In this document: positions 1-328 of the stretch, piece after piece | Numbering within the stretch: position 1 is the stretch's first letter | Layout of the letters: the number at the start of each line of letters is the position of its first letter | NCBI RefSeq assembly: GCF_003334385.1 | Contig: NZ_QOWN01000203.1 | DNA: 328 bases | From: Escherichia coli | GTDB lineage: Bacteria > Pseudomonadota > Gammaproteobacteria > Enterobacterales > Enterobacteriaceae | Reading direction: 5' to 3' (one strand) | Program-made: the position numbers and the translations under genes | The notes under the pieces: generated by a model | What the model was told of the DNA's origin: nothing | Database searches by the model: none | Seen by the model: only the letters and a program-made list of their open reading frames with translations

Positions 1-230
1 TGCACACCGGATTCCATCCCGCCATCGCGGGAACGCCGGGAAAGGACCACCACATTGCGGCGCAGTTTTCCCCTGCGCACCGGTGCCCGTGACACCACTT
101 CTTCTTTCAGTTCATTCGCCCCCGCGCGGGTTGCCTCACGCAGTACCCGGTTGTTTTCTGCACCACTCAGAAGCTGCAAATTACGGCTTATTTCTTCAAG
201 TCCCGAAAAATCCAGCAGGGTTTCGATCAT
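1..230 (-). CDS. Phage tail-component / head-tail joining protein, HK97 gp10 family (N-terminal 76 codons; 3' end lies beyond position 1)
   Basis: Minus-strand ORF starts at ATG (complement of 228-230) and stays open to the window edge. Translation: MIETLLDFSGLEEISRNLQLLSGAENNRVLREATRAGANELKEEVVSRAPVRRGKLRRNVVVLSRRSRDGGMESGV. The N-terminal 'gLeEl..L..L' stretch followed by 'RAPVRRGKLRRNV' matches my recollection of the HK97 gp10 family pattern (roughly 'aP.dTG.LrrSi'; Pfam PF04883 / TIGR01725). A GGGAGGGG Shine-Dalgarno sits 6 nt upstream of the ATG. Family assignment is from memory, not a search. Confidence 0.72.
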   Translation of the reverse strand, partial: MIETLLDFSGLEEISRNLQLLSGAENNRVLREATRAGANELKEEVVSRAPVRRGKLRRNVVVLSRRSRDGGMESGV

Positions 231-328
231 TTTTCCCCTCCCAGCCGACAGAGAATTTCCAGGCGCCCGCCGGTCGCATCCGGCACGGGCACCCCGACAA
301 CATTCAGGATACAGTCACGCCAGGGACC
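227..328 (-). CDS. C-terminal 33 codons plus stop of an upstream phage morphogenesis protein, possibly a head-tail adaptor / head closure protein (5' end lies beyond position 328)
   Basis: Minus-strand frame is open from the window edge (328) to TGA (complement of 227-229). Translation: GPWRDCILNVVGVPVPDATGGRLEILCRLGGEK*. The stop overlaps the downstream ATG (ATGA). The product name is inferred only from synteny, since head-tail adaptor genes commonly precede gp10-like genes in HK97-type clusters. I do not recognise the C-terminal sequence itself. Confidence 0.55.
   Translation of the reverse strand, partial: GPWRDCILNVVGVPVPDATGGRLEILCRLGGEK
235..242 (-). promoter_or_regulatory. Shine-Dalgarno ribosome-binding site for the gp10-like gene
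   Basis: Minus-strand sequence GGGAGGGG (complement of 235-242) lies 6 nt (after the GGAGG core) upstream of the ATG at 230-228, within the last codons of the upstream gene. Confidence 0.6.

Follow-up and report, generated by a model that had tools for sequence, protein, structure and literature searches.

The ATGA stop/start overlap between the Hc1 and HK97-gp10 family genes in the neck module of a lambdoid Escherichia coli prophage

In the canonical type 1 neck, the genes follow the order Ad1-Hc1-Ne1-Tc1 (Lopes et al., PMC4362835). Proteins of the Hc1 type are described as head-completion proteins (PMC4362835). Those of the Ne1 type are tail components that act on tails, and the position of their gene 5' of the tail terminator and major tail genes serves as a criterion for the family (PMC11099176). 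A tail-associated role needed for infectivity was described for SPP1 gp16.1 (PMC11099176), and 80alpha gp51 was placed in the tail lumen at the neck (PMC11661146). A gp10-family protein has been located in one structure only, the 80alpha neck. Its gp10 equivalent sits in the tail lumen as a monomer, capping the end of the DNA and binding three tape measure chains at their N-termini, and its Hc1 equivalent forms a hexameric ring (PMC11661146).

Approximately 15 % of co-directional gene pairs overlap. In prokaryotes, co-directional genes are spaced by NTGA far more often than in any other way, which supports translational coupling, and the -4 spacing is perhaps abundant simply because it evolves easily (PMC12548453). 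When overlapping E. coli pairs were tested with reporters, four of the five were coupled, and removal of the Shine-Dalgarno (SD) sequence lowered reinitiation in four of five tested pairs; bioBF is an overlapping pair without coupling (PMC6728339). Stable structures predicted around the downstream start could explain why the tightly coupled pairs lack de novo initiation (PMC6728339).

The window analyzed here is a stretch of 328 nucleotides from E. coli, and it is the junction of two adjacent neck-module genes of an HK97-type lambdoid E. coli prophage. Prophages of E. coli 2013C-3033 and of one further strain match it at 100 % identity, and many Stx1/Stx2-converting phages at 93 %. Relatives of the window (HK97-like neck modules) were found in 1244 of 5426 complete E. 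coli genomes. Judged by these identities, the source is a lambdoid prophage of the type carried by Shiga-toxin-producing E. coli.

The wider context was taken from the 12-kb locus of a 100 %-identical E. coli record (L001, to which all L001 coordinates refer). Its neck module consists of Ad1 (L001 5416-5742), Hc1 (L001 5752-6102), Ne1 (L001 6099-6545) and Tc1 (L001 6542-6886). Hc1 immediately follows the adaptor gene Ad1 and is itself followed by Ne1 and Tc1, in agreement with the order of Lopes et al. (PMC4362835). The module is densely packed: the spacings are -4 (portal to Ad1), +9 (Ad1 to Hc1), -4 (Hc1 to Ne1) and -4 (Ne1 to Tc1), and ATGA is found at three of the four junctions from portal to Tc1. 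The head genes of the locus are arranged as terminase, a 645-aa capsid protein, a small ORF and a portal of ~860 aa, which is unlike HK97, so that HK97-like neck genes stand alongside a non-HK97 head order. The same head/neck mosaic was noted for phage phi4795 (PMC4362835). In E. coli 2013C-3033 the portal gene (L001 2835-5419) is annotated as a frameshifted pseudogene; thus this copy of the prophage may be defective and may make no virions.

The upstream gene occupies positions 227-328 on the minus strand with its 3' end (the last 33 codons and the stop; 116 aa in full), and its TGA stop is at 229-227. Its translation within the window ends ...GPWRDCILNVVGVPVPDATGGRLEILCRLGGEK, with the C-terminal stretch ...RLEILCRLGGEK and the last residues ...LGGEK*. 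When searched against family profiles, the protein matched PF05521 (7.6e-16, residues 3-111 of 116), TIGR01563 (22 bits; cut-off 20.6) and phrog_25 'head closure Hc1' (8e-31). A sequence relative exists in the PDB (2kz4, 3e-21), and PGAP names the gene 'phage head closure protein' (L001 5752-6102). These matches identify the upstream gene as a phage head closure protein Hc1, similar to SPP1 gp16.

The downstream gene takes up positions 1-230 on the minus strand with its 5' part (the first 76 codons; 148 aa in full). It starts with ATG at 230-228, its translation begins MIETLLDFSGLEE... (MIETLLDFSG...) and the frame is open to the end of the window. The protein matched TIGR01725 (2e-22, 80 bits, cut-off 30.8, over the full model 1-120), PF04883 (2.5e-10) and phrog_5 'tail completion or Neck1' (4.7e-35), and is ~73 % identical to its orthologue gp10 of phage HK97, the namesake of the family. 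PGAP annotates it as 'HK97-gp10 family putative phage morphogenesis protein' (L001 6099-6545). The gene lies 5' of those for the tail terminator (THJP/Tc1) and the major tail protein. By profile and position, the downstream gene is identified as an HK97-gp10 family, Ne1 or tail completion protein. When solved structures were searched for a sequence relative of gp10, none was found, and the only matches were spurious low-complexity ones to designed 'Bagel' proteins.

At the junction, the minus strand reads ...CTG GGA GGG GAA AAA TGA in the Hc1 frame and ATG ATC GAA ACC... in the gp10 frame, which is -1 relative to Hc1. The two genes share the four nucleotides ATGA (227-230, minus strand; ATG 230-228, TGA 229-227), giving a spacing of -4. 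The coordinates given for the overlap in the preliminary description were exact, and the RefSeq Stx2a_WGPS6 record and the PGAP record have the same gene boundaries. The first ATG, GTG or TTG codon after the in-frame stop at 317-315 is the ATG at 230-228, so no start further upstream is possible.

The reality of both frames was examined by computing entropy per codon position over 101 unique junction segments. Upstream of the junction, the Hc1 frame gave 0.65, 0.54 and 1.34 bits for codon positions 1, 2 and 3, and downstream of it the gp10 frame gave 0.38, 0.20 and 0.94 bits. The third-position variation changes from one frame to the other precisely at the junction, which shows that both frames are real and are read up to it; together with the family profile matches, this agrees with the earlier claim that both are real genes. 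The gp10 N-terminus is conserved from residue 1 (M-I-[ED]-T-x-L-D-F-S-G-L). Homologues of 148-149 aa covering 100 % of the query were found in Cronobacter, Franconibacter, Enterobacter, Citrobacter, Salmonella, Brenneria and others, and the family alignments begin at residue 8 (TIGR01725) and residue 13 (PF04883). In the survey of homologues, a common absence of residues 1-17 was not seen. On these comparisons, the ATG at 230-228 is the start of gp10, as annotated.

A third-frame ORF of 35 aa (MLSGCPCRMRPAGAWKFSVGWEGKNDRNPAGFFGT) crosses the junction at 196-303 (minus strand). It was rejected as a gene, as its frame recurs only as the N-terminus of a frameshifted protein (P0009). When the junction was compared with Rfam, no match to a known RNA element was found at E <= 1.

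An SD sequence, GGGAGGGG, lies at 235-242 (minus strand) within the Hc1 codons CTG-GGA-GGG-GAA. It is separated from the start codon by AAAA (231-234, minus strand), which forms an A5 run together with the A of the ATG. The duplex with the 3' end of 16S rRNA was calculated at -10.7 kcal/mol with a 5-nt spacer (5-6 nt from the ATG), which confirms the SD in the last Hc1 codons that had been proposed from the bare sequence. One GGAGG in 328 bases is not unusual (0.71 expected; at least one in 108 of 200 shuffles), and thus the significance of the site rests on its placement. In the 12-kb locus, only 1.5 % of 20-nt windows match a duplex of -10.7 kcal/mol, and the strength of the site is comparable to that of the sites before the capsid and major tail genes.

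The strength of the SD is set by a variable residue between a conserved Gly and Glu in the Hc1 C-terminus (...C[KR]xGxEK*). Here the codon of this residue is GGG; in HK97-like relatives it is an Ala, Ile or Thr codon, and their weaker SDs (-3.9 to -6.6 kcal/mol) are explained by this change of the encoded Hc1 residue. The overlap is retained whatever the SD strength, including in lineages at -3.9 kcal/mol. When the mRNA of a 101-nt region was folded, the minimum free energy was -30.7 kcal/mol against a shuffle mean of -31.1 kcal/mol (z = 0.12). An occluding mRNA hairpin, the mark of obligatory coupling, was therefore rejected, the fold being no better than those of the shuffles.

The survey of overlap conservation covered annotated phages and two sets of 80 viral contigs, one set around the query and the other around a relative of 74 % identity. 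Both genes were placed by tblastn in each fetched locus and the stop-to-start distance was measured independently of annotation. Among the 168 loci with both genes, the junction was ATGA in 160, GTGA in five and an 8-nt overlap (ATGTCTAG) in two, both Burkholderia phages. In the remaining locus, a degraded prophage (L040), Hc1 is broken by a frameshift, and this is the sole non-overlapping case. ATGA or GTGA was thus found at 165 of 168 junctions, down to 44 % identity of the upstream protein, and some overlap in 167 of 168 loci. The tetramer alone is trivial, and it is the conservation across homologous junctions that argues against chance. The proposed comparison of homologous junctions hence favoured the start as first described: no internal start was indicated, and the only change was an occasional ATG to GTG that preserves the overlap.

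As annotated independently, the spacing is -4 in HK97, two Klebsiella phages and Serratia phage OS31, and -8 in the Burkholderia phages phi644-2 and Bcep176. One E. coli phage junction reads GTGATG, which our survey scored as GTGA (-4) and the record annotates from the ATG (-1). In 163 of 165 anchored junction segments (Stx-like and HK97-like groups) the NTGA start follows four A's, with an entropy of at most 0.24 bits at every position of GAAAA-ATG-A; the A-run is missing at the Serratia OS31, Burkholderia, 80alpha, SPP1 and lambda junctions. An overlap is thus the rule in HK97-like necks and usually takes the form ATGA, and neither is universal for the family. In distant necks the form of the overlap differs, so that ATGA characterizes the HK97-like lineage and not the family as a whole.

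Some further observations were made on GAAAA-NTG-A and on the surveyed loci. The string is near-invariant even at ~60 % Hc1 identity and with a varying SD, and this extends to the synonymous third position of the Glu codon GAA (entropy 0.08). Selection at the nucleotide level on that position was considered and was not significant, as 3 of 25 gp10 third positions show the same invariance. In Serratia phage vB_SspS_OS31, an IS150-family element with transposases A and B (L165 2305-3414) lies directly after Tc1 on the opposite strand and occupies the expected place of the major tail gene. Three gene names are likely misannotations. The 80alpha head-tail joining protein gp50 (L173 267-569) is named 'Holliday junction branch migration helicase' and the tail terminator gp52 (L173 928-1311) 'tail fiber protein proximal subunit', both at variance with PMC11661146, and Tc1 of Klebsiella phage ST147-VIM1phi7.2 (L169 1947-2294) is named 'portal protein'.

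Portal, Ad1, Hc1, Ne1 and Tc1 would be transcribed within one late operon. In a consensus scan, without transcript mapping, no promoter-like site was found on the coding strand in L001 5300-7100. The first terminator-like sites in the scan are at the 3' end of Tc1 and just beyond it, and none occurs before L001 6873. A weak hairpin of terminator type (AAGCTGCAAATTACGGCTT, then ATTTCTTCAA) occurs on the plus strand at window positions 171-189, antisense to gp10. It is probably due to chance, because the 1.8 kb scanned contain three sites of this kind and 1.4 are expected.

GC-rich hairpins followed by T-runs, CCGCtgcgGCGG-T7 and CCCGCcgcgtGCGGG-T6, were also observed 5' of the capsid gene (L001 622-690) and of the major tail gene (L001 6886-6956). 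Directly 3' of both is a near-identical string, TTTTTTATT[T/A]TCAGGAGGC, with a strong RBS. HK97 carries 'putative terminator' features at the places equivalent to both hairpins. This looks like a repeated terminator-plus-RBS cassette placed before the two most abundant structural genes.

The junction shares with coupled pairs a co-directional stop/start overlap, an SD within the 3' end of the upstream gene and the lack of a promoter-like or terminator-like site between the genes on the coding strand; the RNA structure that would block initiation under strict coupling is not among its features. Ribosomes that finish Hc1 would terminate on top of the gp10 start, where the SD may hold them so that they reinitiate on gp10 (termination-reinitiation coupling). 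Direct initiation by free ribosomes at the gp10 start is also probable, given a strong SD that no structure occludes, and would result in a mixture of reinitiation and de novo initiation. The outcome would be densely packed genes and a minimum level of gp10 synthesis that depends on translation upstream, and not an equimolar ratio. Taken as a whole, we consider it quite probable that this is a neck-module junction with an overlapping start, an SD, and likely reinitiation plus direct initiation. Coupling itself is a reasonable reading by analogy with the classic -4 architecture, and both it and its share of initiation are inferred.

It could be argued that the overlap reflects compact packing only, with free ribosomes using the strong SD of gp10 and ATGA arising as a by-product without any coupling. 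The strong SD and unremarkable fold make an accessible site plausible, the -4 spacing may owe its abundance to ease of evolution (PMC12548453), the bioBF genes overlap without being coupled (PMC6728339), and lambda copes with an 11-nt gap. Coupling may also be partial or dispensable here, because the fold is no more stable than those of the shuffles. However, 167 of 168 loci have the overlap, lineages with an SD as weak as -3.9 kcal/mol among them, and such persistence is expected if reinitiation matters. The majority of tested overlapping E. coli pairs were coupled (PMC6728339), and a terminating ribosome would sit physically on the start codon, where some interaction would be hard to avoid. 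We therefore regard packing without coupling as unlikely, although it is the alternative that survives best.

The A5 run at the stop (GAA-AAA-UGA; window 227-235, minus strand) was also weighed as a programmed -1 frameshift site yielding a low-level Hc1-gp10 fusion of 264 aa, comparable to the G/GT tail chaperones. The gp10 frame is indeed -1 from Hc1, GAAAA-NTG-A is near-invariant (163 of 165 junctions), and tRNA-Lys re-pairs perfectly after a -1 slip, as can be read from the sequence. In addition, the database protein P0056 is fused exactly at the A-run of the junction (...GAEK-MIET...), and a PHROG profile of 264 positions (phrog_23409), built from such fusions, spans Hc1 and Ne1. However, there is no X XXY YYZ heptamer; the Hc1 frame GGG GAA AAA TGA allows single-tRNA slippage on AAA only. 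The SD is just 4 nt upstream of the AAA codon, and by analogy with prfB versus dnaX an SD spacing of 4 nt promotes shifts of +1 rather than -1. The five distant junctions named above lack the A-run, and the invariance of the synonymous A is not significant when 3 of 25 gp10 third positions are as invariant. Fusion proteins are singletons in a set of 5.8 billion proteins and mostly arose from indels within Hc1, and a fusion between a head ring protein and a tail-lumen monomer has no obvious structural place (PMC11661146). We thus hold programmed frameshifting here to be very improbable. The same holds for a low-level tRNA-Lys -1 slip at a 'shifty' UGA yielding a fusion with its own role in head-tail joining, which is just as improbable. 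If true, the structural operon would contain another programmed frameshift in addition to that of G/GT.

Fused database proteins of 214-255 aa are rare. P0002 and P0005 were rejected as frameshift fusions because the gp10 frame is entered through indels inside Hc1, and P0008 because of an internal deletion.

The last alternative, that gp10 truly starts at an internal codon (TTG codon 18, GTG codons 45/46, or later) and that the overlap is incidental, draws on the in-frame TTG and GTG codons downstream and is scarcely credible, as the alignments to TIGR01725 and PF04883 begin at residues 8 and 13, residues 1-12 are conserved with free synonymous third-position variation, the 148-149 aa homologues of many genera cover the whole query, and a strong SD lies at the correct distance from the ATG at 230-228.

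Return to the favoured reading, a junction with reinitiation plus direct initiation, does not imply equal output of the two proteins. The preliminary description had considered the arrangement typical of stoichiometrically co-expressed phage structural proteins; this was found to be unsupported, as the 80alpha equivalent of gp10 is a monomer and that of Hc1 a hexamer (PMC11661146). Because one is described as a head-completion protein and the other as a tail component, Hc1 and Ne1 belong to separate assembly pathways. With both copy numbers and pathways differing, the overlap is not explicable as a device for equimolar supply, and the ATGA overlap should not be taken as evidence of equimolar expression. 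Both neck genes are small and easily miscalled, with fused or extended versions present in databases, and the analysis confirms the gene boundaries. The -4 overlap is a trait that HK97-like neck modules stably maintain; it has little import beyond correct annotation.

When compared with the coupled E. coli pairs hyfHI, astDB, ydbH/ynbE and menDH (Huber et al. 2019, PMC6728339), the junction shares the -4 spacing, an SD that lies within the upstream gene's 3' end and the same host translation machinery. It differs in that coupling of those pairs was measured with reporters and is here predicted from sequence. Stable structures at or near the downstream initiation region are predicted for the tightly coupled pairs, whereas none is predicted here.

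Among other phages, the order of head closure followed by tail completion is the same and the genes are closely packed in most cases, with different spacings: -1 in 80alpha gp50/gp51, -20 as annotated in SPP1 gene 16/16.1 and -8 in Burkholderia phi644-2 gp9/gp10. Lambda FII/Z also has this order, but with an 11-nt gap and a separate SD for the downstream gene. Since FII and Z sit 11 nt apart, the overlap is not required for neck assembly.

The closest known system is HK97 (NC_002167.1; Hc1/gp7 at 5545-5883 and gp10 at 5880-6329), which has the same families in the same Ad1-Hc1-Ne1-Tc1 order. Its Hc1-gp10 junction has the same ATGA overlap within an identical string, GAAAAATGAT, and its gp10-Tc1 junction is likewise -4. 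The HK97 Hc1 ends ...GAEK*, and because of this one differing residue its SD (GGGAG) is weaker, at -6.6 kcal/mol compared with -10.7 kcal/mol here. The upstream head genes also differ, being terminase, the 645-aa capsid protein and the large portal in the present prophage. The overlap described here is already annotated (RefSeq, PGAP), is the same in kind as the HK97 junction, and is ordinary.
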